A DNA stretch of 64,000 nt, from NCBI GenBank assembly GCA_963665735.1, contig OY762444.1, positions 2,187,547 through 2,251,546 of the forward strand, read 5' to 3'. Below the pieces are notes generated by a model, which saw only the letters and a program-made list of their open reading frames with translations, was not told the origin of the DNA and searched no databases. Made by a program: the position numbers and the translations under genes. The first letter of the stretch is position 1. Each line of letters begins with the position of its first letter. This DNA comes from Dehalococcoidia bacterium. GTDB taxonomy: Bacteria > Chloroflexota > Dehalococcoidia > Lucifugimonadales > UBA3495. Positions 1,848-63,930 of the stretch are shown in pieces.

Positions 1848-2158
1848 CAGGCTAGCAAGTGGGGTTCGGGATGTATATATCTGAGGATAATCCCCCTCCG
1901 CCCATCCGGTTCTCCCCGGGCGTCCCAAAGCTCGACCACCTCTTCCATCGAGTCCGCCATTTCCTCCAAACCGTTCCTGCTGAAAATCACCCACTTGCCG
2001 GCGTGTTCCTCGAAGAGCGCATCGTATTGTTCGCCGAACAACTTAATCGCCTTCGATGAGTTCTCGGACAGCCTTCGCATGGTGGCTTCGTCCAGAATTT
2101 TATGGAATTCGAACGGGGGCTTGAGTCGAACCACGGGCCGCCGATGGTCTTCCGTCAT
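1844..2158 (-). CDS. Small DUF5678-like protein, upstream partner of the protease
   Basis: ATG at 2158 preceded by GGGAG. The motif HAGKWVIFSRNG..EEV recalls DUF5678. Translationally coupled to 1434..1847. Confidence 0.6.
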   Translation of the reverse strand: MTEDHRRPVVRLKPPFEFHKILDEATMRRLSENSSKAIKLFGEQYDALFEEHAGKWVIFSRNGLEEMADSMEEVVELWDARGEPDGRRGIILRYIHPEPHLLAW

Positions 2159-2703
2159 ATCCGTAACTCCCAATCGGGAACCTTCCGGTTCCAACCATTC
2201 AAATCTTGTGCGTCATGGCCCATCGTAGCCGGGGAGGTTGCGCTGGTCAATGCCCTTTACTTCCGCCGTGTTGAGCGGCCCCACCCTTGCCGCAACCACC
2301 GTCATCACGGCCACCAACCCGTCATTCCGGCGAAAGCCGGAATCCAGAAATCCTAATCGCGAAGGCCGTCGCCATTCCCGAAAACTCTCCGCCAACCCGT
2401 AGGGGCGGGTTTGAAACCCGCCCGTCCTTCGCCCCAACCACCGTCATTCCCACCACCCAACCCGTCATTCCGGCGAAGGCCGGAATCCAGGAATCCCAAG
2501 CCAACAACACCGTCCCCTAACCGCAGAAATTTTAAGCCTTTCCTCCATTCCCGGAGACAACTGAAAGACCCTGCACGGCGGCGACATCGCAAGTAGGGGT
2601 AAACCTTGTGGTTGCCCCCGGTGTCGGAACAACTCCCATTGTACGGAGTCACGCCAACCGCATTGCAACGCTGCCAGCGGCGTATTTCCAGGACGGTTGC
2701 AAC

Positions 2704-2731
2704 GTAGGGGCGCACGGCCGTGCGCCCCTAC
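2704..2731. repeat. 28-bp perfect palindrome GTAGGGGCGCACGGCCGTGCGCCCCTAC (REP family B), example copy
   Basis: The same 28-mer also occurs at 6920, 11817, 45506 and 53304. Variants occur at 429 and 55104. Confidence 0.9.
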
Positions 2732-2764
2732 ACCGTTGGCGTTGACACCGTTGCTCGGTGGGCG

Positions 2765-5458: not shown

Positions 5459-5610
5459 GGCGTAAGTTCCTTCGGAAAGGCTTGGATGCTGTCAGGAATG
5501 GTTTGGTTGGCGGTAATCCGGGAAGAGATTGCGACAATCGCAAATATATCACCGCCGCAACAAAACCGTCTATGCGGCAGCCAGCCTGCACGACGCGACT
5601 ATGCGCTTAA

Positions 5611-6204
5611 CTACGAATCCATCGGTTTGCCGCAGACTCCTTTTTGTCCCTCCGCTTGACGCCCCCTAATCCATGCTATGAATTCTTCTACTAACCATTC
5701 AGGGAATTTGACCTTGTAGCCAGGTCCTGTCTTAAACAGGTTCCATCCCCGGAATTCAGGGAGAAGCGGGCCGCTTCCGCCCCAGTATATGAAATCACCG
5801 CTGATAAGCACACGGTCAACTGATGTGTCTTTTTCCATTTCACTTGATTCACAGTGGTACGCGGGAATCTCCTGGCACCAGCTGCCGGTCTCATAATCGA
5901 ATTGATAAATGTTGTCTCCGCAGGACTCTGTAGGGTCTCCATCCAGGTTTGGCCTTTTTGCCAGAAAGCGCTCATCCCTCCAATACTCGTCAAACGTCAG
6001 AACCTCAGTGACTCGCATGGCGTAGGAGATATGATTGCCACGCCACTTACCCCTTGCATCTGAGCCGGTACCCATTATCCAGTCTCCAACCTCAGCGCGC
6101 CCACGGATCTGACCCTTGCAACAGGCCAAGGTGCAAAAGCCATGATAGGGGTTTGGGGCGAACCCCGTATCCCAGCGCAACACGTATGAATACAGCTTGG
6201 TCAT
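5611..6204 (-). CDS. Hypothetical protein, possibly Nmad2-like (nucleotide-modification-associated domain 2)
   Basis: ATG at 6204 preceded by AGGTGGAA. N-terminus is MTKLYSYVLRWDTGFAPNPYHGFCTLACCKGQIRGRAEVGDWIMGTGS. The family name is recalled, not searched. The segment is locally AT-richer. Confidence 0.6.
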   Translation of the reverse strand: MTKLYSYVLRWDTGFAPNPYHGFCTLACCKGQIRGRAEVGDWIMGTGSDARGKWRGNHISYAMRVTEVLTFDEYWRDERFLAKRPNLDGDPTESCGDNIYQFDYETGSWCQEIPAYHCESSEMEKDTSVDRVLISGDFIYWGGSGPLLPEFRGWNLFKTGPGYKVKFPEWLVEEFIAWIRGRQAEGQKGVCGKPMDS

Positions 6205-6449
6205 TTCCACCTGCTTGACGGTTTTCCATACGCTTGATGGATACCGTAACACTCTGGGTAACGATGGGAAGTCAATAGAGAATTGCAACCCCCTCTTTTT
6301 GCCACTTGAGAGGGTCGCATTTATCGGGTGTTCCGGTTTGCCCAAGTGGTGGTTGTCCGTTTTGGGGACGCGCGGGCGTTGCCGTATATGTCCCAGGTCT
6401 GGGGTCAAACAGCCTGGGGAGGTCTGAACCATTCCAGCGTCAAGCGCCG

Positions 6450-6806
6450 TCAGTACCGCTTGGCTGCCACCGGAATCAGCTCATTGTTCACCGGGTCCAC
6501 GGCCAGCAGGGCGTCTTCCAGGGTGATTACGCCCAGCAGGCTGGGCTCTCCCTCCTCAGCGAAGATTACCGGGGTGATGAGTTCAGCGCCTTCCAGCCGG
6601 ATGCTGGCGTAGCCTACCTGGGCCGGTTTTTCGCTGCCGTCGGCCAGTCGTGCGGCGACGGTCCTGCTGACCGGCACTCCCAAGGCCTCCAGTATGCCCC
6701 TGGGCAATGCCGTGTAGGTAGAGCCGGTGTCCACTTCCACATCTACGCTCCGGGAATTTCTCCCCTGGAGGTCTGCCACTTCTATTGTTGCGGTTATCGC
6801 TCCCAT
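6450..6806 (-). CDS. Retropepsin-like (clan AA) aspartic protease, second copy
   Basis: Has the VDTGSTYTALP motif. ATG at 6806 is preceded by GGGAGG at a 6-nt spacing. The frame stays open upstream to 6911, so the start is uncertain. Confidence 0.7.
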   Translation of the reverse strand: MGAITATIEVADLQGRNSRSVDVEVDTGSTYTALPRGILEALGVPVSRTVAARLADGSEKPAQVGYASIRLEGAELITPVIFAEEGEPSLLGVITLEDALLAVDPVNNELIPVAAKRY

Positions 6807-7053
6807 TTCACGCCTCCCGTTGCCCGTATTTTCTTTTTCCGCGAGGAGTTTCGCAATTGTCTCTTGGGCCGGCAGTCGGGATTGCATTTCCCCCACAACC
6901 GCCCTCGTCATCAGCGTCCGTAGGGGCGCACGGCCGTGCGCCCCTACGTCCCTGACCTGAGACACCGGCCAAGCCAACCGGCGGTCTTGGCACAAAAGAC
7001 CCCACCCCCACCCGTAGGGACAACCCTTGAGGTTGCCCTGGCCGGACTTACGC

Positions 7054-7488
7054 CTACCCCGGTTCCGCCAAAAAAACCGGAATTTTGCGGGAAGTGCGGC
7101 CCTGGTACTCTTCGTAGGGCGGGTAGGCGGCCACCGCCAAGTCCCACAAGCGCGCCCGTTCCCCGTCGTCTCGGACTTCCCGGACTTGCATGGCATAGAC
7201 CTGCGCCTCGTCCCGGATTTCAACGCTGGCCTCGGCCCGCAGGTTGTAAACCCAGGACGGATTTTTCGGCGCGCCGCCCTGGGAACCCACCAGCACGTAG
7301 TTGTCGCCGTCCTTGACGCGCATCAGCGGGGTCTTGCGGATGGCCCCGGTCTGGTTGCCCGTGTTGGTGACGATGATGACGGGCAGCCCGGTATCGCGCA
7401 GCGTGGTTCCCTGGGCGCCGCCGCTGCCTTCGTAAAGTTCCACCTGCTCGCGCACCCAGTCCCTGGTTGATGGTATATATTCGGCCAT
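7054..7488 (-). CDS. Deazaflavin (F420)-dependent nitroreductase family protein (DDN-like)
   Basis: 144 aa. Matches the PF04075 pattern as I recall it: ..PLMRVKDGDNYVLVGSQGGAPKNPSWVYNL.. and ..YEEYQGRTSRKIPVFLAEP. Confidence 0.8.
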   Translation of the reverse strand: MAEYIPSTRDWVREQVELYEGSGGAQGTTLRDTGLPVIIVTNTGNQTGAIRKTPLMRVKDGDNYVLVGSQGGAPKNPSWVYNLRAEASVEIRDEAQVYAMQVREVRDDGERARLWDLAVAAYPPYEEYQGRTSRKIPVFLAEPG

Positions 7489-7940
7489 GATTTTCCGTCT
7501 CCTCCGTTGCGGGTTAATGGTTATGGCGTCAATGATACCGGGATTCGGGGTTAAGGACTACTGCCCTGCCTCCACGACGCCTACCGTCATTCCCGCGAAA
7601 GCGGGAATCCAAAATCCTCGCCAGAGCCGGCCTTGGCCCCCGAATAACCGTCATACCGGCGTAGGCCGGTATCCAGGATTCCTTGCCCTTATGGACGCTG
7701 TTCTATGCTTGCAATTTCTGGATTCCGGCTTTCGCCGGAATGATGGTGGAGGGCGGGCCGGAATGATGGTGGGGGCTACCGCCATGTCACTCCGGACTTC
7801 CACCTGTCACCCTGAACTTCCCCCATGTCACCCTGAACGAAGTGAAGGGTCTAAAATCCTTCGGGAAAGGCGGCGTTGGATAAGGCAAGAATTTTGGATT
7901 CTTCGCTCTGCTCAGAATGACGTGGAAGGACTGAGGAATG

Positions 7941-12752: not shown

Positions 12753-14312
12753 CTAGTCCGGCGTAGTCCCTACCGCCGGCAGCGACGCCTCTTCGTCCGT
12801 CGCCAGCATCCGGTTAACCGCGCTCAGGTACGCCTTGGCGCTGGCAACAATAATGTCCGTCGAGGCCCCCCGACCGGAGAAAGTCCGCCCGGCGTTCTCA
12901 ATGCGGATGGTCACTGTGCCGATGGAGTCAATTCCCTCGCTGACCGCCTGCACGTTGAACTCCGACAGCTTGTTGTGGCAGCCAATCACCCGGTCAATGG
13001 CCTTGCACACCGCATCCACCGGCCCATTCCCCGTTGATGCGTCGGTGTAAATCTGGCCGTCCGGCCCCACCATCCGCACCGTCGCCGTGGGAATGTCATG
13101 GTCGCCGCTGGAAAAATGCACCTGGTCCAGCGAGTACGTCACCGGCTCCGCCGAAACCAGCTTTTCCTCGTCCATCAAAATTTCCAAGTCCCGGTCGGTA
13201 ACTTCCCGTTTCTTGTCCGCCAGCACCTTGAAAGACTCGAAGACGTTGGTGATTTCCTCCCGGTCCAGGGTATAGCCCAGGGCCTCCAGCCGCGCCTGCA
13301 ACCCGGCCCGTCCGCTCAGCTTGCCCAGCACCAGGCTGTTGCCCGGCACCCCCACCCGCTCCGGCTGCATCACCTCATAGGTCGAGCGGTCTTTCAACAC
13401 CCCGTCCTGGTGAATCCCCGACGCGTGGCGGAAAGCGTTTTCCCCCACCACCGCCTTGTTGGCCTGCACCGCCATTCCGGTGATGCGGCTCACCAGCCGG
13501 CTGGACGGGTAAATCTGCGTCGTGTCCACGCCAATGTCCACCCGGAACAGGTCTTTGCGGGTATCCAGCGCCATGATGATTTCTTCCAGCGAGGCGTTGC
13601 CGGCCCGCTCCCCGATGCCGTTGATGCACCCTTCCACCTGCCGCGCCCCGGCTTCAATGGCCGCCAGGCTGTTGGACACCGCCAGCCCCAAATCGTTGTG
13701 ACAGTGAACGCTCAGCGTCACCTTTTCAATCCCCGCCACCCGGTTCTGGATGTCCTGCAACAGTTGGGCGAAGTTGGACGGGATGGCGTAGCCCACCGTG
13801 TCGGCGATGTTGACCGTGGTAGCCCCGGCCCGGATAACCGCCTCCAGCATCTGGTACAGGTACTCCGGGTCCGTGCGGGTGGCGTCCATCGGAGAAAACT
13901 CCACGTCGTCGCAGTAGCCCTTGGCCCGCTGCACCATGCTGACGGCCATGTCCATGACCTCTTCCCGGTTCTTCCGCAGCTGGTGCATCACGTGAATCTC
14001 CGACGAGGACAGGAAAACGTGGATGCGCGGCGATTCCGCCACCTTGATAGCCTCCCAAGCCTGGTCAACGTCGTTGGGATGCGCCCGGGCCAGGGACGCG
14101 ATGACCGGCCCCCGCACTTCCCGCGCGATGTTGCTGACCGCCTGGAAGTCCCCCGGCGAACTGGCGGCAAACCCCGCCTCGATAATGTCCACCCGCAGCC
14201 GTTCCAGTTGCTTGGCGATTTCCAACTTCTCTTCCTGGGTCATGCCGATGCCGGCCGACTGCTCCCCGTCCCGCAGGGTGGTATCCAGGAACTTCACTCT
14301 TTCGTTAGCCAT
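12753..14312 (-). CDS. leuA: 2-isopropylmalate synthase
   Basis: 519 aa. Has N-terminal FLDTTLRDGEQS, HCHNDLGLAV and the LeuA C-terminal regulatory domain. Confidence 0.95.
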   Translation of the reverse strand: MANERVKFLDTTLRDGEQSAGIGMTQEEKLEIAKQLERLRVDIIEAGFAASSPGDFQAVSNIAREVRGPVIASLARAHPNDVDQAWEAIKVAESPRIHVFLSSSEIHVMHQLRKNREEVMDMAVSMVQRAKGYCDDVEFSPMDATRTDPEYLYQMLEAVIRAGATTVNIADTVGYAIPSNFAQLLQDIQNRVAGIEKVTLSVHCHNDLGLAVSNSLAAIEAGARQVEGCINGIGERAGNASLEEIIMALDTRKDLFRVDIGVDTTQIYPSSRLVSRITGMAVQANKAVVGENAFRHASGIHQDGVLKDRSTYEVMQPERVGVPGNSLVLGKLSGRAGLQARLEALGYTLDREEITNVFESFKVLADKKREVTDRDLEILMDEEKLVSAEPVTYSLDQVHFSSGDHDIPTATVRMVGPDGQIYTDASTGNGPVDAVCKAIDRVIGCHNKLSEFNVQAVSEGIDSIGTVTIRIENAGRTFSGRGASTDIIVASAKAYLSAVNRMLATDEEASLPAVGTTPD

Positions 14313-14583
14313 GACTTTTGCTCTTTCCTTTTCCTTTCGATACTTGCGTCGCCCGCGGCCTCAGTTGTGAGACCGGATAAACCGGGAACGGGAACGCAGG
14401 GCCACGCAGTCCACCGCAGCCAGCCCCGCCAAGACCGGCCTGCGATGGTGAACTGCTCTAAACAGCGCCTCCGCATCCATAAACTTACCTCCTGAGAATG
14501 ACCAAGCCATCCTTCAATAACCCCCTCCCCTTGCCAGGGGGAGGGTTGGGGCAAGGGTGAAAACCCCGTTTCAAGACGTTTCC

Positions 14584-15183
14584 TCAACCCCCCAACCTGT
14601 TGAGCATCATCAGCACAAGCGCGAACCACATCCCCATCTGGGAAATCCACATGGTTATCATTACACCCAGTAGCCACAGGAATTGACGATCCATCCTGGC
14701 CCGCAGTGAGTTGTGGTCTTCCCTTAGCCCCCTGAATTCGGCCCGCAGGTCTCGGTTATCTTCCCGCAGTCCCCTGATTTCGGTCCGCAGGTCGCTACCT
14801 TCCGCTTTGACCTCGCCCCGCAGGTCGCTAATTTCCCCTTTGACTTCGCCCCGCAACGCGTTGTTGTCTTCTCTCAGTCCCCTGACCTCGGCCCGCAAGT
14901 CGCTACCTTCCGCTTTGACCTCTGCTCGCAGATCGCTACCTTCCGCTTTGACCTCTGCTCGCAGGTCGCTCATTTCCCCTTTGACTTCGCCCCGCAGGTC
15001 GCTGATTTCCCCCTTGACTTCGCCCCGCAAACCGCCCATGTCTCCCCTGAGACTTCTGACCTCCGCCTTAACATCAAGGATTTCTTGTCTAATTTGGTCT
15101 GCCTGCCGCTCAAGCTGCTCCATCCTGGTTTCCAGCCGGGCCAGCCTTTCGCCATCGGGCCTGTCCGCAATTTCCGTAGTCAT
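14584..15183 (-). CDS. Coiled-coil repeat protein with C-terminal transmembrane anchor
   Basis: 199 aa. About ten 11-residue repeats (DLRGEVKGEIS / DLRAEVKAEGS) are followed by the hydrophobic tail FLWLLGVMITMWISQMGMWFALVLMML. Confidence 0.7.
   Translation of the reverse strand: MTTEIADRPDGERLARLETRMEQLERQADQIRQEILDVKAEVRSLRGDMGGLRGEVKGEISDLRGEVKGEMSDLRAEVKAEGSDLRAEVKAEGSDLRAEVRGLREDNNALRGEVKGEISDLRGEVKAEGSDLRTEIRGLREDNRDLRAEFRGLREDHNSLRARMDRQFLWLLGVMITMWISQMGMWFALVLMMLNRLGG
14703..15066. repeat. 33-bp in-frame tandem repeats encoding the 11-residue coiled-coil units
   Basis: Repeated ..GACCTCTGCTCGCAGRTCGCTACCTTCCGCTTT.. blocks are visible on the plus strand. Confidence 0.8.
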
Positions 15184-15276
15184 CCTTCACCTGCTCTTCC
15201 TTCCGGCCCAGCAAGACCATAAATCCTTGCCGGAAATCCCCCACCACAAGGAGGGTTGGGGAGAGGGGTAGCGCCC

Positions 15277-16278
15277 CTAAACTTCCTTCGGGTCCAGCCA
15301 AGGCATCATCGAGCGCAGCTCCCGCCCAACTTCGTGAATCTGGCTGCTGCGGGCTTGTTCCCGCAGCGGGCGGAACCGCGGACGCCCCTCGTGGTTCTCC
15401 GTAATCCACTCCCGGGCGAAAGTCCCGTCCTGAATGTCCGCCAGAATCTTCTTCATGTTTTCCTTCACGTGCTCGTCAATCACCCGCGGCCCCCGCGTCA
15501 AGTCCCCGTACTCCGCCGTATCGCTGACGCTGTACCGCATATAGTTGAAACCGCCCTGCTGAATCAGGTCCACGATTAACTTCATTTCGTGCAGCACTTC
15601 GAAATACGCCATCTCCGGCGGATACCCCGCCTCAACCAGCGTCTCAAACGCCGTGTTAATCAGCGCCGTTATGCCCCCGCAGAGCACCGTCTGCTCCCCG
15701 AACAAGTCCGTTTCCGTTTCGTCCTTGAACGTCGTGTCCAGCACTCCCGACTTGGTGCAGCCCACCCCCTTGGCGTAAGCCAGGCCGATAGCCTTGGCGT
15801 TGCCCGTGGCGTCCTGGTGAACCGCCAGCAATCCGGGAACACCGATACCCTCAATGAACTGCTCCCGCATCCGGTGGCCCGGCGCCTTGGGCGCCACCAT
15901 CATCACGTCAATGTTGTCCGGCGGCACCACCTCCCGGTAGTGAATGCTGAACCCGTGGGCGAACATCAACGCCGCCCCCGCCCGCAGATTGGGCGCAATC
16001 TCCCCCCGGTAAATCTCCCCCTGGATATGGTCCGGAATCGCCACCATCAGCACGTCGGCCTGCTGCGCCACTTCCGGCACGTCGGCCACTTCCAACCCGG
16101 CCTCCCGAACCGCGTCCCGGCTCCGGCTTTCCGGGTACAGCCCCACGATTACCTTCTGCCCGCTGTCCCGCAGATTCAGAGCGTGGGCGTGACCCTGGCT
16201 CCCATATCCCACCATGCCGATGGTCTTCCCCTCCAGGATTCCCAAATCGGCGTCGTTGTCGTAATAGACGTTAACCAT
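15277..16278 (-). CDS. ilvC: Ketol-acid reductoisomerase
   Basis: 333 aa with [17 protein letters not shown] and the class I KARI length. Confidence 0.95.
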
Positions 16279-16437
16279 TGCGTACTTTCCCTTTCCTTTG
16301 TCTGGTAGTCTGTCGCCGTTGCATTTGCGACTAACCCGGCCCCGTCATACCGGCGTAGGCCAGTATGACGATACATCCTTGCCAAATCACCCCCTCCCCC
16401 TACCAGGGGGAGGGTTGGGGAGGGGGTCAACCCCAAC

Positions 16438-17022
16438 CTAATACGAACCTACCTCGCTGGCCTCGGCCTTCGACCTCCCGTTACGCAAGTAGCTGATTCC
16501 AAAATCGTCGCTGACCTGGCCGTCCGCCTTCCCCCGCACCATCGCCACCAGTCCCGTTCGCATGATTTCCATAATCCCGAAAGGCGCCATCAGTTCCAGC
16601 AGGGCGTCAATCTTTTCTTCCTCCCCCGTAACCTCAATCACCAGCGACTGCGCCCCCACGTCCACCGTCTTGGCCCGGAACAGCCGCACAATCTCGATTA
16701 TCTGGCTGCGCGTCTCCACCGTGGTGCGGACTTTCACCAGCGCCAACTCCCGCGCCACCACGTCCTCATCCGATATATCCGACACCTTCACCACGTCAAT
16801 CAGCTTGTCCAACTGTTTCCGCGCCTGGTCAACCGTGTATTCGTCCCCTTCAACCACGAAGGTCATCCGCGACAGCCCCGGCTGCTCGCTGTGGCCCACC
16901 GCCAGGCTGGCGATGTTGAACCCCCGCCGCCGGAACAGGCTGGCAACCCGCGTCAAGACCCCCGGCTTGTCCTCCACCAGGGCGATGATGGTGTGCAGTG
17001 GGGTATGAGCGTGATTCGTCAT
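16438..17022 (-). CDS. ilvN: Acetolactate synthase small (regulatory) subunit
   Basis: 194 aa with an ACT domain (LVEDKPGVLTRVASLFRRRGFNIASL). ATGA overlap with the ilvB stop. Confidence 0.92.
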   Translation of the reverse strand: MTNHAHTPLHTIIALVEDKPGVLTRVASLFRRRGFNIASLAVGHSEQPGLSRMTFVVEGDEYTVDQARKQLDKLIDVVKVSDISDEDVVARELALVKVRTTVETRSQIIEIVRLFRAKTVDVGAQSLVIEVTGEEEKIDALLELMAPFGIMEIMRTGLVAMVRGKADGQVSDDFGISYLRNGRSKAEASEVGSY

Positions 17023-18728
17023 CAGAAAACCTGCTCCGTGATCGGCTCTTCCAGCATTTCGTTGACCGACTCCCCCGCCGGAATCATCGGGAAGACGTGC
17101 TCATCCTGCTTGACGATGAAGTCCACGATTACCGGCCCCGGTATCTCCATCGCCTTCTGTATCGCCCCGGCCACCTGCGCCTTGTCCGTCACCTTGATAC
17201 CCGCGATCCCGTAGGCTTCGGCAATCTTCATAAAGTCGGGATTGCCGGAGTAAATCGTCGCCACGAAGTCGCTGTCATAGAACAAGTCCTGCAACTGCCG
17301 CACCATCCCCAGCGTGCCGTTGTTAAGAATGGCGAACTTCACGTCAATGTTGTTTTCCACCGCCGTCGCCAGGTCGCACATGGTCATCTGGAAACCGCCG
17401 TCCCCGGCCACCGACCAGACCGTCTTTTCCGGCCGTCCCATCTTGGCGCCCAGCGCCGCCGGCACCTCAAACCCCATCGTTCCCAGACCGCCGGAAGTTA
17501 CCCAGGAGTTAGCCTCCTTGAAATGATAATGCTGGGCGGCCCACATCTGGTGTTGACCGACCCCCGTAACCACCAGCGCCTCCCCCTTGGTCACTTCCGA
17601 AAGCTGCTGCATCACGTATTGCGGCAGAATCTCCGTGGACGCTCGCACGTGCAGCGACGGATGCTCCGCCCGCATGGTGTCAATCTCTTGCAGCCAGTCT
17701 ATCCGCACCGTCTTTTCAATCCGCGGACTCAATTGCCGCAGGGCCAGTTTCAAGTCCCCCAGCACCGGAACGTCCACGTTCACGTTCTTGTCAAACTCCG
17801 ACGGGTCAATGTCAAAATGCGCCACCCGCGCGTTGGGCGCAAAGTCCGACAGCCGCCCGGTAACCCGGTCGTCAAAACGCGCCCCCAGCGAAATCAGCAC
17901 GTCCGCCCGGTCAATGGCCAGGCTGGCGTAGGCCATCCCGTGCATCCCCGGCATCCCCACGTACAAAATATGCTCCGTCGGAAACGAGCTGATTCCCAGC
18001 AGCGTCGTGATAACCGGAATCTGCGCCTTTTCCGCCAACTCCCTGAGTTCGTCAAAGGCCCGGGAAATAATGACCCCGTGGCCCGCCAGAATCACCGGAC
18101 GCCGTGCCTGATTGATGAGTTGAGCGGCTTGGGCGATTTGCTCTTCCTCCGCCTCTCCCGGCGGGTTGTACCCCGGCAGGTTCACCCTGTCCGGCCAAAC
18201 GAACTCCGTCCGCTCCCCCAGCAGCACGTCCTTGGGAATATCCACCAGCACCGGGCCGGGCCGTCCCGTCCGCGCCACGTAAAACGCCTCTTTAATCGCC
18301 GGCGCCACGTCCCTGACGTCCATCACCAGGTAATTGTGCTTGGTAATCGGCAGCGTCAGCCCGGTAACGTCCGTTTCCTGGAAAGCGTCCCTACCGATAG
18401 CCGCCCGCGGCACCTGCCCCGTAATCGCCACCATCGGCACCGAATCCATCTGCGCCGCGGCGATTCCCGTCGCCAGGTTGGTTGCCCCCGGCCCCGACGT
18501 AGCCGTGCAGACCCCTACCCGGCCCGTAGCCCGGGCGTAGCCGTCCGCCGCCATCGCCGCCGCCTGCTCGTGCCGCACCAGCACGTGCCGCAACTCCGGA
18601 TACTTGGGCATCGCCCCATAAAAGGGCAGCACCGCACCGCCGGGAATCCCGAAAACGATTTCCACCCCTTCCCGCAGCAGGCTCTCGCAAACGATTTCCG
18701 CCCCGGTCAATTCCCTGGTCAAGTCCAT
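17022..18728 (-). CDS. ilvB: Acetolactate synthase large subunit
   Basis: ThDP enzyme with GAEIVCESLLREGVE and the GGLGTMGFEVPAALGA ThDP motif. I take the ATG at 18728 rather than the TTG at 18755 used by the track. Confidence 0.93.
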   Translation of the reverse strand: MDLTRELTGAEIVCESLLREGVEIVFGIPGGAVLPFYGAMPKYPELRHVLVRHEQAAAMAADGYARATGRVGVCTATSGPGATNLATGIAAAQMDSVPMVAITGQVPRAAIGRDAFQETDVTGLTLPITKHNYLVMDVRDVAPAIKEAFYVARTGRPGPVLVDIPKDVLLGERTEFVWPDRVNLPGYNPPGEAEEEQIAQAAQLINQARRPVILAGHGVIISRAFDELRELAEKAQIPVITTLLGISSFPTEHILYVGMPGMHGMAYASLAIDRADVLISLGARFDDRVTGRLSDFAPNARVAHFDIDPSEFDKNVNVDVPVLGDLKLALRQLSPRIEKTVRIDWLQEIDTMRAEHPSLHVRASTEILPQYVMQQLSEVTKGEALVVTGVGQHQMWAAQHYHFKEANSWVTSGGLGTMGFEVPAALGAKMGRPEKTVWSVAGDGGFQMTMCDLATAVENNIDVKFAILNNGTLGMVRQLQDLFYDSDFVATIYSGNPDFMKIAEAYGIAGIKVTDKAQVAGAIQKAMEIPGPVIVDFIVKQDEHVFPMIPAGESVNEMLEEPITEQVF

Positions 18729-18753
18729 CTTTGACCTCGCGCCATACTCAAAC

Positions 18754-19008
18754 AAAAAACCCGTCCCCTACTGAAGGGACGGGCTGGAAATCCCGCGGTA
18801 CCACCCTTCTTTCCCGGTCATGGAAAACCCAATCCCGGAACAACTCGGCAGCCTCTATCGGGGCTGAACCGCCGGCCCTACTGACTTCTACGTTCAGGCC
18901 GGACGCTCCTGGGCGAGTTCAGGCCCCTGTACCCGCCGGACTTCCACCAACCGCCGGCTCTCTGAGGGCAGGGCAACCCTACTACTCCCACTCAACGCGC
19001 CACGCCAA
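18754..19008 (-). promoter_or_regulatory. T-box riboswitch leader of the ilvBNC-leuA operon
   Basis: Minus strand has an AGAGAG bulge motif, the canonical T-box AGAAGGGUGGUACCGCGGG (18792-18810) and a terminator CCCGUCCC-UUCAGUA-GGGGACGGG + U6 (18754-18784). The candidate specifier is CUG (Leu), which is tentative. Confidence 0.85.
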
Positions 19009-22546: not shown

Positions 22547-23095
22547 CTAGTAGGTCAGGGCATCGGCCACGCCGTCGGGCAGCTCCACGTCCAGGGCTTG
22601 CAGGGTGTGGGCCAAGCCGTGGTAGTAGGCCACTACCAGCAGCACATCTACGATAGCGGCGTCGCCAATCCGGGAACGTAGCGCCTCAAAGCTGGCGTCG
22701 GAGATGCGGTGCTGCCGCAGCATTTCCAGGACGAACTGCACCACGGCAGCGTCAGCATCGGCCAGGCCCGCCGGGGCGCGGTATTCGTGAATGGCAGCGA
22801 TAACGTCGTCGTCCAGCCCGGCCTCTCTGGCGGCGCGCTGATTGACCGTCCAAACGTAATGGCCGCAGGCTTCCCGGGCGGCAGTCAGGATGGCCAGGGC
22901 CTTGACGCGGGGGTCCAGGGGAGTCTCGAAACGGGCGTAACCGCCGAAGGCCGCGAAGTTGCGGGCGGCTTCGGGGTTGTTGAGGATGGCAGCGTAATTA
23001 CGGGCAACCCCGCCGCGGCTGCCTTCGATTTCGTCCCAGGCGGCTTGCCCGTCCGGGCCGATGGTGTCGCGGGTCATAAAGGGTACACGGGCCAT
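22547..23095 (-). CDS. Carboxymuconolactone decarboxylase (AhpD-like) family protein
   Basis: 182 aa. Paralog of 63382..63930 with the same overall pattern (..RFETPLDPRVKALAILTAARE..). Confidence 0.75.
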   Translation of the reverse strand: MARVPFMTRDTIGPDGQAAWDEIEGSRGGVARNYAAILNNPEAARNFAAFGGYARFETPLDPRVKALAILTAAREACGHYVWTVNQRAAREAGLDDDVIAAIHEYRAPAGLADADAAVVQFVLEMLRQHRISDASFEALRSRIGDAAIVDVLLVVAYYHGLAHTLQALDVELPDGVADALTY

Positions 23096-48632: not shown

Positions 48633-48750
48633 TCCTGGTGGTTCTAGCGGAGTGGCCCCACCCGTTCCCATCCCGAACACGGAAGTGAAACGCTCCAGCG
48701 CCGACGATACTGCTCTGGCAACGGGGTGGGAAAATAGGTCACCGCCGGGA
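48633..48750 (+). rRNA. rrf: 5S ribosomal RNA
   Basis: TCCTGGTGG...CCACCCGTTCCCATCCCGAACACGGAAGTGAAACGCTCCAGCGCCGACGATACTG...AGGTCACCGCCGGGA. Universal 5S loop/helix sequences are present and the terminal helix pairs. Confidence 0.93.
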
Positions 48751-56264: not shown

Positions 56265-56396
56265 GAAACTCGGCAATAATCCAACCCCCTTATATCCGGG
56301 AAAGGCAAAAAATCCCCTCCCCCTGATAGGGGGAGGGTTAGGGAGGGGGTGATCCTGGAGATGCGTCCCCATCCCCAGCAACCCGGAGCGCCAGCC

Positions 56397-56933
56397 ATGA
56401 CAACACCGCTGCCAGACCCCGGCGAAGCCAGCGTTGATGACCACGTTCAAATGAGCCGGATATTCCTGGAACACGCCCACCAGGAATTAGACCACGGCGA
56501 CCGTCTCCAGGCGTCGGAAAAAATCTGGGGCGCAACCTCCCACGCCCTCAAAGCCATCGCCATCCAAAGGGGTTGGCGCCATCGCTCCAACGCCACCGTT
56601 TTCGATGTCGGCGAGCAGCTAGCCCTGGAATTTGACCGGGAAGAGGACTTTGAGCGGTATCTGGACAGGGCCGATGCTATGCACCAGAACTTCTACGAAA
56701 ACAACCGGGGCGAACTTGCTGTCCGGTTGGCGCTGGCAGACATCGAAAAATTCTTGGCCGAACTGGACCGAGTACGGGAATCGCCGCCTCGGCCCTACAC
56801 CGTCAGCACTGCCGACGACCGCCGCCGCCTGGGCAACCTCCTGGGTCTCTCCCGGCCCCAACGCCCGGCCATTGGTTCCACTCACCCCCGCGGTTTCTCT
56901 CAACTTCCCGACAACCCGGAGCGCCAGCCATGA
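56397..56933 (+). CDS. PaREP1-like (HEPN-fold) protein with ~55-aa C-terminal tail, tandem copy 1
   Basis: MTTPLPDPGEASVDDHVQMSRIFLEHAHQELDHGDRLQASEKIWGATSHALKAIAIQRGW... ATGA overlap with copy 2. Confidence 0.7.
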   Translation: MTTPLPDPGEASVDDHVQMSRIFLEHAHQELDHGDRLQASEKIWGATSHALKAIAIQRGWRHRSNATVFDVGEQLALEFDREEDFERYLDRADAMHQNFYENNRGELAVRLALADIEKFLAELDRVRESPPRPYTVSTADDRRRLGNLLGLSRPQRPAIGSTHPRGFSQLPDNPERQP

Positions 56934-57466
56934 CAACACCGCTGCCAGACCCCGGCGAAGCCAGTGTTGATGACCACGTTCAAATGAGCCGGATATTCCT
57001 GGAACACGCCCACCAGGAGTTAGACCACGGCGACCGTCTCCAGGCGTCGGAAAAAATCTGGGGCGCAACCTCCCACGCCCTCAAAGCCATCGCTATCCAA
57101 CGGGGTTGGCGCCATCGCTCCAACGCCACCATCTTTGACATTGGCGAACAACTAGCAAGGGAGTTCGGTAGGGAAGACGATTTCGACCGATACTTGACCC
57201 GTGCCGGAGCCATGCACCAGAACTTCTACGACAACGACCGGCGCGAACCCGCTATCCAGTTGGCCTTGGCCGATGTTGAGGAATTTGTAGCTGAATTAGG
57301 CCAAATCCGCGAATCAGCGCCCCGGTCTTTCACCGTCCGCGACGCCAACGACCGCGACCGGCTGGGCAACCTCCTGGGTCTCTCCCGGCCCCAACGCCCG
57401 GCCATCGGTTCCACCCACCCCCACGGCTTTTCCCAACTGCCCGATGACCCGGAGCGCCAACCATGA
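56930..57466 (+). CDS. PaREP1-like protein, tandem copy 2
   Basis: The first ~85 residues are almost identical to copy 1. ATGA overlaps on both sides. Confidence 0.7.
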   Translation: MTTPLPDPGEASVDDHVQMSRIFLEHAHQELDHGDRLQASEKIWGATSHALKAIAIQRGWRHRSNATIFDIGEQLAREFGREDDFDRYLTRAGAMHQNFYDNDRREPAIQLALADVEEFVAELGQIRESAPRSFTVRDANDRDRLGNLLGLSRPQRPAIGSTHPHGFSQLPDDPERQP

Positions 57467-57990
57467 CAACACCGCTGCCAGACCCCGGCGAAGCCAGCGT
57501 TGACGACCACGTTCAAATGAGCCGGATATTCCTGGAACACGCCCACGCCGAGTTGGACCACGGCGACCGTCTCCAGGCCTCCGAAAAAATCTGGGGCGCA
57601 ACCGCCCACGCCCTCAAAGCCATAGCTATCCAACGGGGTTGGCGCCATCGTTCCAACGCCACCGTTTTCGACATCGGCCAACAACTTGGCCGGGAATTTG
57701 GTCGGGAGTTGGACTTCACCCGATACTTGGCCCAAGCCGACACCATGCACCAGAACTTCTATGAGAACCACCAGCGCCGCCCCGCTATCCGGTTGGCCTT
57801 GGCGGATACCGAGAAATTCGTAGATGAATTAGACGAAATCCGCGAATCAATGCCCAAACCTTTCACCGTCGGCGACTCCGATGACCGGGACCGGCTGGGC
57901 AACCTCCTCGGTCTCTCCCGGCCCCAACGTCCCGCCATCGGTTCCACCCACCCCCACGGCTTTTCCCAAACCCCCAAAAACGGCAGTTAA
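57463..57990 (+). CDS. PaREP1-like protein, tandem copy 3
   Basis: Same architecture. The C-terminus is slightly shorter (..THPHGFSQTPKNGS). Confidence 0.7.
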   Translation: MTTPLPDPGEASVDDHVQMSRIFLEHAHAELDHGDRLQASEKIWGATAHALKAIAIQRGWRHRSNATVFDIGQQLGREFGRELDFTRYLAQADTMHQNFYENHQRRPAIRLALADTEKFVDELDEIRESMPKPFTVGDSDDRDRLGNLLGLSRPQRPAIGSTHPHGFSQTPKNGS

Positions 57991-58029
57991 CCAAAAAAAC
58001 CCAAAAATAAACGCAGGAGGCTAACCCCC

Positions 58030-58557
58030 ATGACTATCCAAATCCTTGACCCCCGGCCCGAAGAGCAGGCCGAAACTCAACGCCTCAGCCCCCAACTCCC
58101 CGGCATCCAGGGCCAGGTCATCGGCCTGCTGGAAAACACCAAGTACCACTCCGACGCCTTCCTGGAAGAACTCCAGCGCGTCCTCAAAAACGACTACCAG
58201 GCCAAAAAGGTAATCTACGCCCGCAAATTCTCTTTCAGCGCCCCCTGCGCCGAAGAAACCCTGCAAGCCCTGGTTGACCAGTGCGACGCCGTGGTTCACG
58301 GCATTGCCGATTGAGGCTCCTGCACAGCGTGGGGTCTCCACGACACCGTTATCACCGAATCCCGCGGCCTTCCCTCCGTCAGCGTCATCACCAGCTCCTT
58401 CACCCGCGCCGCCGCCACCCGCGCCGCCTCCCTGGGTATGCCCGACGCCCGCATCGTCGTGTTGCCCAGCCCGCTGCCGCCCCGTTCCATCCCCGAAGTG
58501 CAGCAAATGGCCCACGACTACGCCCAGGAAATTGTCAACCTGCTGGCCGCCGGCTGA
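58030..58557 (+). CDS. UGSC-family selenoprotein (in-frame UGA at 58312-58314 read as Sec)
   Basis: AGGAGG RBS. The ORF track stops at ..VVHGIAD-TGA, but the same frame continues GSCTAWGLHDTVITESRGLP... to TGA 58555-58557. This gives the motif D-U-G-S-C. A hairpin sits at 58328-58342. Confidence 0.7.
58328..58342 (+). promoter_or_regulatory. Candidate bacterial SECIS apical hairpin
   Basis: CGUGG-GGUCU-CCACG starts 14 nt after the UGA. The loop GGUC resembles the E. coli fdhF SECIS loop. Confidence 0.45.
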
Positions 58558-58620: not shown

Positions 58621-59307
58621 ATGAAAACCGAAATCGAATTTGACCCCAGCTACGCCCTGCTCACCGTTGACCTCGACCCCGGCGAAAGCATCAAGGCCGA
58701 ACCGGGGGCGATGGTCGCCCAGCAAGGCGTCTCCATGAAAACCGGCACCACCGGCGGAGGCGTCTTCGGGGGCATCCGCCGCATGATGGCCGGCGAATCC
58801 TTCACCATCAACACCTTCACCGCCGGCTCCCACGGCGGCCAGGTCAACCTCGCCCCCTCCACCCCCGGCGACATCGGCTCCTTCCCCCTGGCCCCCGGCC
58901 AAAACCTGTTCATCCAGTCCAGTTCCTTCCTCGCTTGCACCGAAAACGTCCAGACCGACACCCAGTTTCAGGGATTCCGCGGCTTTTTCAGCGGCGAGAG
59001 TATGTTCTTCCTCCGCGCCTACGCCGACCGGGGCGAGGGCACCGTCTTTTACAACTCCTACGGCGCCATCAAGCGAATGCCCGTCCAGCCCGGCGGCGAG
59101 CTGGTGGTGGACACCGGCCACCTGGTCGCCTTCACCGACGACGTGGACTACTCCATCGGCAAAGTCGGCGGCATCCGCTCCCTCATCGGCGGGGGCGAAG
59201 GACTGGTAATGAAATTCCGCGGCAACGGCCACGTCTGGATACAGACCCGCAACCTGGCCTCCCTGGCCGACAAAATCATCCCGTTCATGCCCACCCGCGG
59301 CCAATAA
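58621..59307 (+). CDS. TIGR00266/AIM24 (DUF124) family protein
   Basis: 228 aa with ..SYALLTVDLDPGESIKAEPGAMV.., ..GESFTINTFTA.. and ..GEGLVMKFRGNGHVWIQT... Confidence 0.85.
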   Translation: MKTEIEFDPSYALLTVDLDPGESIKAEPGAMVAQQGVSMKTGTTGGGVFGGIRRMMAGESFTINTFTAGSHGGQVNLAPSTPGDIGSFPLAPGQNLFIQSSSFLACTENVQTDTQFQGFRGFFSGESMFFLRAYADRGEGTVFYNSYGAIKRMPVQPGGELVVDTGHLVAFTDDVDYSIGKVGGIRSLIGGGEGLVMKFRGNGHVWIQTRNLASLADKIIPFMPTRGQ

Positions 59308-59428
59308 ATACAACCCCTGAACCCTGAGAGACGAAAAAATCCCTTCCCCGCCTACAACCGTCATTCCGGCGAAAGCCGGAATCCAGAATTTCCAGCGAAT
59401 AGCAACGCTCAACGAAGGACTAACCCCT

Positions 59429-59521
59429 ATGGCACAACCCACCAAACTTCCGCCCCGTGAACGTATCCACAACTTCGACACCGTCCGGGACTACTACCCA
59501 GGTTTCGGAGGTTTGGCGTGA
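59429..59521 (+). pseudogene. 30-codon remnant paralogous to the 5' end of 61027..62094
   Basis: MAQPTKLPPRERIHNFDTVRDYY.. aligns with MTQSPLNSRRVNVSDDFDDIQDYY... The upstream UTR is also duplicated (59355-59499 versus 60952-61098). Confidence 0.6.
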
Positions 59522-59562
59522 TTGTCGGAGGGTGTTTTCGGGGAGACGACGACTCTGGAGTC

Positions 59563-60039
59563 ATGTGGATGCAGCATGATGCCTACCACGAAGCGTTGGG
59601 AATCATTGCAGGCATATGCCAGGACTACACGAATCTGGCGCATAGGATACTGGGCGACCGCGAGACCGGATGGGAATTCATGTGCAGGTTCGATCACCGT
59701 ACACTGCAAGACGCCCACGATAAAATAGCCGCCACATGGCGCTCTAGATGCCTGCTAACGGTTAGACAGATGGAACTCCCTATAGAACGGGAGTATGTGA
59801 AGGCACCGGACGTCAGGGGACACTGGCTCAAATGGCTTGGAGATGAAGTCAGGTCCTGGACACATGACCCCCATCTAATTCAACTTGTCGTCACGATCCT
59901 CGAAAACCAAAACAACCCTGTGGGATACCGAGCAGAGGCGAACCTAAATCGGGAGCTCGTTTTCCGTTATGGGGACGTACCTTGGAACCAATACATAATT
60001 GATGCCGTTCGGAAGGTCCTCGACGAAGAGGATGATTAA
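59563..60039 (+). CDS. Hypothetical protein (AT-richer islet)
   Basis: From MWMQHDAYHEALG... About 158 aa with no family recognised. The start is uncertain (GTG 59518 possible). Confidence 0.45.
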   Translation: MWMQHDAYHEALGIIAGICQDYTNLAHRILGDRETGWEFMCRFDHRTLQDAHDKIAATWRSRCLLTVRQMELPIEREYVKAPDVRGHWLKWLGDEVRSWTHDPHLIQLVVTILENQNNPVGYRAEANLNRELVFRYGDVPWNQYIIDAVRKVLDEEDD

Positions 60040-60174
60040 CAACTATTCGGCGTGTTGGTGCCTGTGCGATTAAGCGGACATGATGTCCGATAGTCTAACC
60101 CTCCACATCCTTGACGCATTTCCGTGTTTACACTAACGTAGCCTTGGAAAGATTGATTCCCGGAGCAATCGGCA

Positions 60175-60462
60175 ATGGAAATCAGGAAGAAACGGCTAAC
60201 CCTAGACTTGGACCCCATGACCCAGCGGCGCTTGAAAGCCGTTGCCGCCATGAAGGGCATAAGTATGCGCCAGTATTGCCTGACTGCCATAAATAGAGAG
60301 TTAGCCAAGGACGACGGAGCCACCGTGACCCGACTCCCCTTCGGACACGAATCTCTGGACCGACTGGATGCTCTGCGTAATGAGATATTCGGCGAAAAAA
60401 TCCTGCCCGGCGATTCAGTAGAGTTCATCCGGCAGGCGCGGGAGTCCAGGAGTGTATCGTGA
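60175..60462 (+). CDS. vapB: Ribbon-helix-helix antitoxin (VapB-like)
   Basis: 95 aa. KKRLTLDLDPMTQRRLKAVAAMKGISMRQY is an RHH pattern. 4-nt overlap with the PIN gene. Confidence 0.7.
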   Translation: MEIRKKRLTLDLDPMTQRRLKAVAAMKGISMRQYCLTAINRELAKDDGATVTRLPFGHESLDRLDALRNEIFGEKILPGDSVEFIRQARESRSVS

Positions 60463-60902
60463 GCGAAATGGTTGTCGTGGATGCGAGCTTGGCCTTCAAG
60501 TGGCTGGTCAGCGAGGAAAATTCCGACCGCGCCCAATCAATCTCCAGGTCATGGGCTAATGACGGAATCCAAACCGTCGCGCCCTACCTGATGCCGGTCG
60601 AGGTGGCAAATGCCCTGCATCGCCGGGTCGCCCGCGGCGAATTGACAGTTTCGGATGCGGTACGACTTCTGGAGTATCTGCTGGCTTCAGGAATCGAGTT
60701 GCGCGATGAGCCGGGTCTTAACGCAAGAGCGCTCCAACTTGCCAGTCGCCTCCAGCAAGGCGCGGTCTATGACGCCCACTATCTCGCCTTGGCGGACATC
60801 CTGGGCTGCGAATACTGGACCGCCGATGAAAGGTTTTACCGCGCGGCAGCGCCCACCGCTCAAAACGTCCACTGGATTGGCGAGTTCGCCGTACCGGAAT
60901 AG
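60459..60902 (+). CDS. vapC: PIN-domain toxin (VapC-like)
   Basis: GTG start. VVVDASLAFKWL.., ..VYDAHYLALA.., ..TADERF.. give the PIN acidic residues. Confidence 0.8.
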   Translation: MSEMVVVDASLAFKWLVSEENSDRAQSISRSWANDGIQTVAPYLMPVEVANALHRRVARGELTVSDAVRLLEYLLASGIELRDEPGLNARALQLASRLQQGAVYDAHYLALADILGCEYWTADERFYRAAAPTAQNVHWIGEFAVPE

Positions 60903-61026: not shown

Positions 61027-62094
61027 ATGACCCAATCACCCCTCAACTCCCGCCGCGTCAACGTCTCCGACGATTTTGACGACATTCAGGACTACTACGA
61101 AGAACAGGGCTGGACCGACGGCCTCCCCGTCACCCCCGCCACCGAAGACGCCGTCCGCCGGATGCTCGGCCCCTTCGGTGAAGACCCCGGCCACTCCCTG
61201 GGCATAATCCAGCCCCGCAACGCCCCCGTCACCCTGGAAAAAATCGCCGTCAACGCCGTCATGGCCGGCTGCCGCCCCGAACATTTCCCCGTCGTGCTGG
61301 CCGCCGTCCGCGCCGTCATGCAGCCCGCCTTCAACATCGCCGGCTGCCAGGCCACCACCGGCGGCGCCGCTCCCGCCGTCATCGTCAACGGCCCCATCGC
61401 CAGGGAACTGGGCATCAACGGCGACTCCGGTTGTTTCGGCCCCGGTTACCGGGCCAACGCCGTCATTGGCCGCGCCCTGCGCCTGGTCGTCCGCAACATC
61501 GCCGGTCTGATTCCCGGCGACATGGACAAGGCCACCCTGGGACTGCCCGCCCGCTATACCTTCTGTTTCGCCGAAAACGAAGACCGCAGCCCCTGGGAGC
61601 CGCGCCACGTCGAAATGGGCCTGCCCCCCGAGGCCGGCATGGTCACTGTAACCGCCATCCGCGGGATGTATCCCATCATGGAAACCACCGTTTCCGACGG
61701 CAAGGCAGTGCTGGCAACCCTGGTCAAAGGCATCCAGGTAGCCGGATTCGCCAACTACTACCAGATTGGCACCGGCGCCCAGATAACCCTCATCGTCTGC
61801 CCCGAACACGCCCAGGAAATGCACGACGCCGGGCTGTCCAAGGCCGACGTGCGCCGCTACATCTACGAAAACGCCCGTATGCCCATCGGCCAACTGGAAG
61901 GAATCGCCCATTGGGGCAACCGCAACTGGCCCGCCTGGGTTGACCAGAGCAACCCCGAAACCCTGGTGCCGGTGGCTCCCCACCCCGACGACATCGAAGT
62001 ATTCGTAGCCGGCGGGGATGGACGCCACTCCGCCTGGCTGGCCGGTTGGGGCGTAACCCGCGTAGTAACCCAACAAATCCACCACACCCTCTAA
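61027..62094 (+). CDS. Conserved-looking hypothetical protein, 355 aa, family not recognised
   Basis: Clean ORF with an AAGGA RBS. Contains blocks GWTDGLPVTPAT, IAVNAVMAGCRPEHFPV, NIAGCQATTGGAAP, GCFGPGYRANAVIGRALRLV. Confidence 0.75.
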   Translation: MTQSPLNSRRVNVSDDFDDIQDYYEEQGWTDGLPVTPATEDAVRRMLGPFGEDPGHSLGIIQPRNAPVTLEKIAVNAVMAGCRPEHFPVVLAAVRAVMQPAFNIAGCQATTGGAAPAVIVNGPIARELGINGDSGCFGPGYRANAVIGRALRLVVRNIAGLIPGDMDKATLGLPARYTFCFAENEDRSPWEPRHVEMGLPPEAGMVTVTAIRGMYPIMETTVSDGKAVLATLVKGIQVAGFANYYQIGTGAQITLIVCPEHAQEMHDAGLSKADVRRYIYENARMPIGQLEGIAHWGNRNWPAWVDQSNPETLVPVAPHPDDIEVFVAGGDGRHSAWLAGWGVTRVVTQQIHHTL

Positions 62095-63381: not shown

Positions 63382-63930
63382 ATGGCCCGACTAGGCAACG
63401 TATCCCGCGAAGAACTCCAGCCCGACGAACAGCAATTCTACGACTCCATCGCCGACAGTCGCGGCAGCGTCCGCGGCCCCTACGGAGTCCTGCTCCACAG
63501 CCCCGACCTGGCCGCGCGGGTGGCCCACACCGGCTCTTACGTCCGCTTCAACCTGGACTTGCCCGAATCCCTGAAAGAAACGGTCATCATCACCACCGCC
63601 CGCGAAATCCGCAGCCAGTACGAATTTGCCGCCCATGCCCGCCTCGCCCGCCAGGCCGGCGTATCCGACAGCACCATCGCCGCCATTGCCAACGGCTCCG
63701 CCCCCGACGGTCTGGACGGTGAAGAGGCCCTGCTGGTCACCTACGTCAAGGAACTGCTGCAAAACCACAAGGTCAGCGACGCCGCCTACGCCGCCGTCAA
63801 GGACCAGTACGGCGTCTCCAAGACCGTCGAAATCACCGCCCTGGTTGGCCACTACCTGCTGGTGGGGCAAATCCTCGCCGCCTTTGAGGTAGACCTCCCC
63901 GAAGGCGTCTCCCCCGAAATCCCCGACTAG
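63382..63930 (+). CDS. Carboxymuconolactone decarboxylase (AhpD-like) family protein
   Basis: 182 aa, paralog of 22547..23095. AAGGAGG RBS. Confidence 0.75.
   Translation: MARLGNVSREELQPDEQQFYDSIADSRGSVRGPYGVLLHSPDLAARVAHTGSYVRFNLDLPESLKETVIITTAREIRSQYEFAAHARLARQAGVSDSTIAAIANGSAPDGLDGEEALLVTYVKELLQNHKVSDAAYAAVKDQYGVSKTVEITALVGHYLLVGQILAAFEVDLPEGVSPEIPD

Follow-up and report, generated by a model that had tools for sequence, protein, structure and literature searches.

Whether the UGA codon at positions 58312-58314 of a stretch of Dehalococcoidia DNA ends a short protein, or is instead decoded as selenocysteine (Sec) within a longer one, is the question raised by the locus considered here. 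The window, i.e. the whole stretch of 64,000 nucleotides that was analysed (contig OY762444.1, positions 2,187,547 to 2,251,546, forward strand), carries an ATG at 58030 (+), and a Shine-Dalgarno-like AGGAGG read from the sequence at 58015-58020 (+) ends 9 nucleotides 5' of it. From this ATG, 94 codons run to ...DAVVHGIAD and are followed by the TGA at 58312-58314, after which the frame stays open for 80 further codons (GSCTAWGLHD...NLLAAG) and closes at a second TGA at 58555-58557. An earlier note on this DNA had described exactly this arrangement of a 94-residue open reading frame (ORF) and its open continuation, and all of its coordinates hold. It had also expected a gene caller to fragment or miss the gene, and standard callers do give the same split here and in relatives. 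We conclude, in agreement with that note and with a probability of about 0.9, that 58030-58557 (+) is a single gene of 175 codons plus a TGA stop, which encodes a 175-residue selenoprotein of the UGSC family, and in which the UGA of codon 95, opening the U-G-S-C motif (58312-58323), is read as Sec with the aid of a conserved RNA hairpin. In the window, TGA serves as an ordinary stop in three of nine confidently assigned genes, as well as at the end of the UGSC gene itself, and wholesale codon reassignment in this genome is therefore excluded.

The assignment to the UGSC family, which the earlier note had drawn from the motif D-U-G-S-C, is confirmed by curated family models. With U replaced by C in the translation for scoring with hidden Markov models (HMMs), the full read-through protein matches NF041046 (NCBIfam) with 131.6 bits against a curated cut-off of 125 (model positions 2-146 of 147), and PF24696 (Pfam) with 166.3 bits against a cut-off of 25 (positions 1-171 of 172). 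Scored separately, the 94 residues before U and the 80 after it each match their own half of NF041046, with 50 and 60 bits, respectively. The motif lies at the invariant position of the family, where D94-U95-G96-S97-C98-T99 lines up with the invariant D-C-G-S-C-T of 79 Cys-form homologs and Cys stands exactly at the place of U; in the resulting 80-sequence alignment, D94, C95, G96, S97, C98 and T99 do not vary. Searches yielded at least 165 Cys-form relatives with D-C-G-S-C-T-x-W, in all of which Cys occupies the U position, and whose hosts include Archaeoglobi, haloarchaea, methanogens, Actinomycetota and Sphingomonadales. Zhang and Gladyshev (PMC2398784) present the 'UGSC-containing protein' as a major selenoprotein family of marine and freshwater samples, and give Global Ocean Sampling counts of 255 Sec forms and 21 Cys forms, the Sec forms being the more numerous in aquatic samples. 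In reviews, the family is described as bioinformatically identified and functionally uncharacterised (PMC13188914).

Conservation of the UGA among relatives was followed in a database of 5.8 billion proteins, and the DNA loci were checked for continuity of the frame. The closest database relatives are all fragments, namely 97-99-residue pieces ending in ...GIAD and C-terminal pieces of 105-118 residues; in one relative (L026), the two halves are annotated as adjacent genes, each with PF24696. The earlier note had held that homologs ending consistently at GIAD, followed by codons without homologs, would speak against recoding. Protein records do end at GIAD, as gene callers split the same gene everywhere, but the DNA continues in frame in every case, and the 80 downstream codons have homologs and are under purifying selection. 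A TGA at the identical codon followed by 79-83 open codons was found in 18 Dehalococcoidia loci and one Acidimicrobiales locus, and 20 of 20 Dehalococcoidia orthologs have TGA at this codon, with frame and length kept. A search for the DNA pattern D-TGA-G-S-C-T-x-W in one genome per species returned at least 120 loci, and at least 102 further genes, among the matches listed, show UGSC homology on both sides of the TGA. The same UGA is present in more than 120 genomes of many phyla, and the Sec-form hosts listed comprise Beta-, Gamma-, Alpha- and Deltaproteobacteria, Rokubacteria/Methylomirabilota, Binatia, Acidimicrobiia, Chloroflexota and Bacillota, among others. Between the window gene and nine orthologs, the ratio of nonsynonymous to synonymous substitution rates (dN/dS) is 0.12-0.41 upstream and 0.09-0.31 downstream of the TGA, which indicates that both halves encode protein under purifying selection. 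Within the window, 265 in-frame TGAs have at least 30 open codons on either side, but only two of them, the UGSC TGA and one at 40235 (-), are flanked on both sides by codon usage of the coding type. The TGA at 40235 joins 33 and 59 codons with a weak two-sided coding signal in a region of shadow ORFs; it is short and probably noise.

How the UGA might be marked for recoding is suggested by the RNA immediately downstream. A hairpin that the earlier note had pointed out, CGUGG-GGUCU-CCACG, is present at 58328-58342 (+), starting at the 14th nucleotide past the UGA; its 5' arm occupies 58328-58332, its loop 58333-58337 and its 3' arm 58338-58342, and its calculated energy is -7.1 kcal/mol. Bacterial selenocysteine insertion sequences (SECIS elements) share, as a consensus, a stem-loop that directly follows the UGA and bears a conserved G(U) in an apical loop about 16-37 nucleotides from this codon. 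The window hairpin has this form, with the loop G22-G23-U24-C25-U26 (counted from the U of UGA) and G23-U24 at 58334-58335. Taken alone, the hairpin is weak evidence, and it is the comparative evidence that raises the combination of UGA and hairpin far beyond chance. Of the 1,606 TGA triplets of the window, 4.7% pass a loose test for a SECIS-like hairpin, and 0.8% also show G23-U24. The folding energy of the SECIS region is no better than that of shuffled sequences (z 0.34), and an Rfam search gave no SECIS match; to our knowledge, Rfam holds no bacterial SECIS model. No SECIS-like hairpin follows the true stop at 58555.

Comparison among relatives gives three kinds of evidence for the hairpin. 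Codons +5 to +10 after the UGA (GCG/ACG TGG GGT CTC CAC GAC, encoding A/T-W-G-L-H-D) show zero synonymous variation in 20 Dehalococcoidia orthologs; the other eligible codons have a mean synonymous entropy of 1.10 bits and are invariant in 6.7% of cases, and codons +5 to +10 form the unique minimum along the gene. The structure is also specific to the Sec forms. For this comparison, a hairpin was counted as SECIS-like if its stem had at least 5 base pairs, if its loop of 3-7 nucleotides contained GU, and if it began 12-20 nucleotides from the U of UGA; 116 of 120 distinct Sec-form sequences have such a hairpin, versus 7 of 82 Cys-form sequences encoding the same motif (Fisher p ~1e-41). At codon +7, Ser is encoded by AGT in all 68 Sec forms that have Ser there, a choice which supplies the loop U, whereas AGC is the commonest codon at that place among the Cys forms (36). 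Sec and Cys forms of one motif provide a very clean natural control for the freezing of synonymous sites by an in-ORF SECIS. Covariation is the third kind. In 111 Sec-form sequences aligned without gaps, an 8-pair helix (nucleotides 15-22 with 26-33) is paired in 93.7% of cells, compared with 22-51% when the partner column is slid, and G23 and U24 are nearly invariant. Compensatory change occurs in four of the eight pairs, and cells in which both partners have changed number 21, against 5.5 +/- 2.1 in shuffles, none of 500 shuffles reaching the observed value. An example is the replacement of CGUGG/CCACG by CAUGG/CCAUG through two synonymous changes, and a few lineages have a wholly different stem at the same place (GGCUGGU-AGUUG-ACCAGUC). 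Frozen synonymous sites, Sec-form specificity and covariation together support this conserved, Sec-form-specific hairpin as a putative in-ORF bacterial SECIS of textbook form, as the earlier note had supposed.

Some further features of the Sec-type genes may be recorded here. The Asp codon before the UGA (58309-58311) is GAT, and the Cys codon at +3 (58318-58320) is TGC, in all 20 Dehalococcoidia orthologs (the window, L001-L018 and L026), while other Asp and Cys codons of the gene vary; the fixed GAT and TGC may mean that local context beyond the hairpin influences Sec decoding. In a groundwater Chloroflexi metagenome-assembled genome (MAG) (L180, 3725-7511, -), three Sec-type UGSC genes stand in tandem, and the open frame after each of them, at about 460 codons, could accommodate the domain of the partner protein described below; a Syntrophobacter MAG (L155, 4436-7335, +) has two Sec-type UGSC genes; the UGSC module is multiplied in these two lineages. 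A Sec-type gene with a bacterial in-ORF hairpin was also found on a contig labelled Candidatus Nitrosocosmicus, an ammonia-oxidising archaeon (L113, DASRWT010000003.1), for which mis-binning of a bacterial contig seems a likelier explanation than the use of a bacterial-type SECIS by an archaeon.

Several observations weigh against Sec decoding assisted by this hairpin. The window hairpin consists of only five Watson-Crick pairs and a G.U closing pair, and the lower pairs 15-33 and 16-32, present in most other phyla, are mismatched (A15.C33, G16.A32). The search pattern fixed the TGG codon, and three positions of the 5' arm were thereby unable to vary by design. Folded in isolation, the 45-nucleotide RNA prefers another helix, which includes the UGA and pairs nucleotides 2-12 with 16-27 (-14.5 versus -7.1 kcal/mol). 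No SelA, SelB or SelD homolog (tblastn with E. coli queries) and no tRNA gene (ARAGORN) was detected in the 64-kb window; nor did in-frame-TGA scans, the second of them crude, give another selenoprotein candidate in the window or in 276 kb of related Dehalococcoidia DNA. Finally, Sec insertion is not known to have been demonstrated by experiment for any member of the UGSC family. The competing helix was rejected on comparative grounds, as its share of paired cells (77.2%) is matched by shuffles (77.0%) and it shows no excess covariation; a ribosome decoding the UGA would, moreover, occupy it.

The decoding machinery was likewise sought in related DNA. By tblastn and ARAGORN, selA, selB, selD and tRNA-Sec were found in none of the Dehalococcoidia loci examined, and a SelB-like match in the Dehalococcoidia contig L183 was discarded as TypA/BipA. 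The sole locus with sel matches is that of a Burkholderiales MAG (L117, CAIPFK010000068.1), in which selA (1666-3096), selB (3146-5047) and tRNA-Sec (6018-6113) lie immediately upstream of a Sec-type UGSC gene (match at 7667-7690), the cluster spanning 1666-7690. BSepDB confined its selenoprotein search to species that have two or more Sec-pathway genes; two Dehalococcoidia MAGs listed there, with 49 and 46 selenoproteins, rank among the richest bacteria (PMC13326102). The Burkholderiales cluster and these Dehalococcoidia MAGs lend indirect support to the presence of Sec machinery in the genome of the window. Two carboxymuconolactone-decarboxylase (AhpD-like) proteins, at 22547-23095 (-) and 63382-63930 (+), are both encoded by uninterrupted ORFs in the window, and the latter has a far-sub-threshold match to the 'YciW-related (seleno)protein' model NF053654. 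This family has many selenoprotein members elsewhere.

A gene interrupted by TGA can be understood in ways other than Sec insertion. The UGA at 58312 could be a true stop, leaving a decaying pseudogene or a 94-residue protein only, with the downstream frame as a relic; such is exactly the call that standard gene callers make here and in relatives, and no Sec machinery is seen in the window. A relic would, however, gather stops and frameshifts, whereas purifying selection acts on the 80 codons past the UGA as strongly as on those before it, more than 120 genomes keep this stretch open, and its translation matches the second half of the family model. Nearby synonymous sites vary, but the TGA does not. 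Conservation has effectively refuted this explanation already, and we regard it as very unlikely. Highly improbable, too, is the production of two separate polypeptides, a 94-residue N-terminal protein and an independently initiated C-terminal one. Databases do list separate C-terminal proteins of 105-118 residues that begin at an internal Met or Val, but the first in-frame start after the UGA of the window gene is the ATG at 58438, 41 codons on, beyond both G-S-C-T-x-W and a portion of the fold. Homologs of the Cys form consist of one chain, the structural model forms one compact domain over both halves, and the U-x-x-C pair would be divided between two chains. We give almost no credence to the idea that a TGC or TGT was misread or misassembled as TGA, for which a single-base difference would suffice, as the same TGA recurs in more than 120 genomes that were assembled independently, and is accompanied by a hairpin which the TGY homologs do not have.

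A more subtle alternative accepts that the UGA is read through, but with another amino acid: Cys, by way of a tRNA-Sec-like tRNA(Cys) and SelB, or Trp or Cys by near-cognate suppression. The position tolerates Cys, as many homologs show, Sec insertion here rests on sequence rather than on experiment, and the cis elements for Sec insertion would serve a SelB-dependent route to Cys equally well. Unusual Sec/Cys recoding systems are also cited in the literature, and are reportedly the subject of Mukai et al. 2016. That study is referenced in PMC5424206. Nevertheless, a G23-U24 loop of the fdhF type at the canonical distance points to SelB-dependent decoding, Dehalococcoidia MAGs have been reported with full Sec pathways and large selenoproteomes, and a TGY codon, as in the Cys forms, would be simpler if Cys were intended. 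We consider readthrough without Sec to be very unlikely, and Sec insertion at codon 95 remains the preferred reading.

Under Sec insertion, the following sequence of events may be proposed. As the ribosome reaches the UGA at 58312-58314, the mRNA just downstream would fold into the hairpin at 58328-58342, whose apical loop would present G23-U24; in the SECIS of E. coli fdhF, these two bases stand equally far from the UGA. By analogy, SelB charged with Sec-tRNA(Sec) would bind the hairpin and deliver selenocysteine, and translation would then run on for 80 codons to the real stop at 58555. In the finished protein, Sec95 and Cys98 could form a U-x-x-C redox pair. Actual Sec insertion, recognition by SelB and the redox role are what we infer from these comparisons.

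The UGSC protein most probably works with a second protein, encoded in the window at 61027-62094 (+), which has 355 residues, belongs to an uncharacterised family and is likely to be functionally coupled to it. A homolog of this partner lies on the same strand as the UGSC gene in 207 of 225 loci (~92%), within 500 nucleotides or fused in 197; the linkage occurs in either order, at Sec- and Cys-form loci, and in bacteria and archaea, and clustering of the neighbourhoods revealed no third gene universally linked to UGSC. Fusions of a Sec-type UGSC with the partner occur in cultured isolates too, among them Robertmurraya sp. 2P01SA (NZ_CP154845.1, L123). The window partner is 39% identical (E 1e-66) to the gene adjoining UGSC in L183, and in the closest relative in the genome collection (L008) the partner, 88% identical to the window copy, lies 114 nucleotides downstream of UGSC. 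The partner family has at least 7,439 database homologs, all annotated as 'hypothetical'. No Pfam or NCBIfam model matches the protein, and its structural model (predicted local distance difference test, pLDDT, 77.6) has no significant neighbour in the PDB; the best Foldseek match, class I fumarate hydratase, was set aside, its template modelling (TM) score of ~0.25 being too weak to use. Across 193 sequences of 29-88% identity, the partner keeps D31, C82 (in N-A-x-x-A-G-C), T111, N144, R149, D167, E183, W190 and H261, a set of residues that resembles the active site of an enzyme and includes a single key cysteine. In L026, a restriction-endonuclease/phospholipase D-like gene is inserted after UGSC, and the partner (contig_2 of ERZ25067193, 12763-13120) matches over about 59 residues, followed by a TGA and unrelated sequence; the partner may be disrupted there.

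The association suggests a working model in which the UGSC protein would reduce or attack, for instance, a site around the near-invariant Cys82 of its partner. We put forward tentatively, and at somewhat less than even odds, that UGSC, instead of acting alone as a thioredoxin-like protein, is a dedicated selenol/thiol redox subunit of a two-component enzyme, of which the ~355-residue partner would be the catalytic component, with Cys82, E183 and H261 forming the site serviced by Sec95. If true, this reading would define a new selenoenzyme system of unknown chemistry. The near-universal linkage of the two genes offers, in any event, a concrete starting point for finding out what this selenoprotein, among the most abundant in aquatic samples, does.

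A sequence search of the PDB gave no match for UGSC. The fold of the protein was approached through the closest full-length Cys form (P0121), which is 35% identical to the window protein. The AlphaFold model of P0121, built with a 79-sequence alignment (pLDDT 94.3, predicted TM score 0.88), is predicted to contain five successive beta-alpha units around a parallel sheet, with C-G-S-C placed where the third strand ends and the next helix begins. Foldseek matches of this model in the PDB are only flavodoxin/Rossmann-like (lumazine synthase, PTS IIB, flavodoxin), with TM scores below 0.5, and the top 50 contain no thioredoxin fold. The model thus suggests that the UGSC fold is flavodoxin-like rather than thioredoxin-like. 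A 'Trx-like fold' had been suggested in 2008 (PMC2398784), and is not supported by the Foldseek result.

Between the UGSC gene and its partner, the window contains an AIM24-family gene (58621-59307, +; Pfam match), an ORF of unknown nature (59518-60039, +), a ParD-like antitoxin gene (60175-60462, +; Pfam match) and a PIN toxin gene (60459-60902, +; Pfam match). These intervening genes (58621-60902) are absent between UGSC and partner in L008 and in most other relatives, and are regarded as context rather than as part of the system. Upstream, three tandem PaREP1/PaREP8 paralogs of 194, 178 and 175 residues (56349-57990, +) lie between a short-chain dehydrogenase/reductase (SDR) gene and UGSC; in L026, a single PaREP1 gene is present, at another place in the neighbourhood. 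In more distant parts of the window, a T-box leader (RF00230, 106.5 bits) at 18772-19004 (-) stands directly upstream of an operon at 12753-18755 (-) with genes for the large (17022-18755) and small (16438-17022) subunits of acetolactate synthase, ketol-acid reductoisomerase (15277-16278) and a LeuA-like protein (12753-14312), and 12753-19004 has the look of a branched-chain amino-acid operon under T-box control in a genome of the Chloroflexota. A 5S rRNA gene (48634-48750, +; 90.8 bits) appears unlinked from the large rRNA genes, no 23S or 16S gene having been detected in the 64-kb window.

The significance of the locus should be seen in proportion. The UGSC family has been known since the 2000s, curated NCBIfam and Pfam models exist, and the window gene is a further member; as the family is already described, the result amounts to a routine annotation fix rather than a discovery, and its biological value is modest because the family has long been catalogued. 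The correction is of use all the same, for the automatic annotations encountered, essentially without exception, split or truncate this gene and its orthologs, which then appear as 97-99-residue 'hypothetical proteins' and orphan C-terminal pieces. Once the UGA is taken as Sec, a complete conserved protein is recovered, and the organism can be counted as a probable user of selenium.

Compared with known systems, the closest parallel to the hairpin is the SECIS of E. coli fdhF, the sequence of which was found inside fdhF in 5,419 of 5,426 E. coli genomes. Both lie within the coding region just 3' of the UGA, and the resemblance of the GGUC loop to the fdhF apex, proposed in the earlier note, extends to identical nucleotide positions: the apical loop G22-G23-U24-C25 of the verified fdhF element recurs in G22-G23-U24-C25-U26 of the window. 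In the fdhF SECIS, G23 and U24 are contacts of SelB. The majority UGSC hairpin also begins at nucleotide 15, as does the 17-nucleotide minimal fdhF element. The UGSC hairpin of the window differs, however, in having neither the bulged U in the stem nor the extended lower helix, and the window stem is limited to its 5 base pairs with the G.U closing pair.

As a member of the UGSC family (NF041046/PF24696), the window protein shares the full-length HMM match, the position of D-[U/C]-G-S-C-T-x-W and the length of about 175 residues, and shows no essential difference; the nearest orthologs found in Dehalococcoidia share 84% of its residues, and its exact sequence is not among the database matches. 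The window does differ in that inserted genes have pushed the partner gene about 2.5 kb downstream. Fusions of UGSC with a domain called 'Unknown_1' were reported in 2008 by Zhang and Gladyshev (Figure S1A of PMC2398784), and the ~355-residue partner is probably this domain, although in the window the two are separate genes 2.5 kb apart. With the thioredoxin-fold UxxC/CxxC oxidoreductases (Trx-, Prx-, Grx- and DsbA-like proteins), the UGSC protein shares U-x-x-C at the N-terminus of a helix after a beta-strand, which is the classical redox arrangement, and presumably also their thiol/selenol redox chemistry, whereas the mixed-sheet beta-alpha-beta-alpha-beta-beta-alpha order of the thioredoxin fold is not that predicted for P0121.

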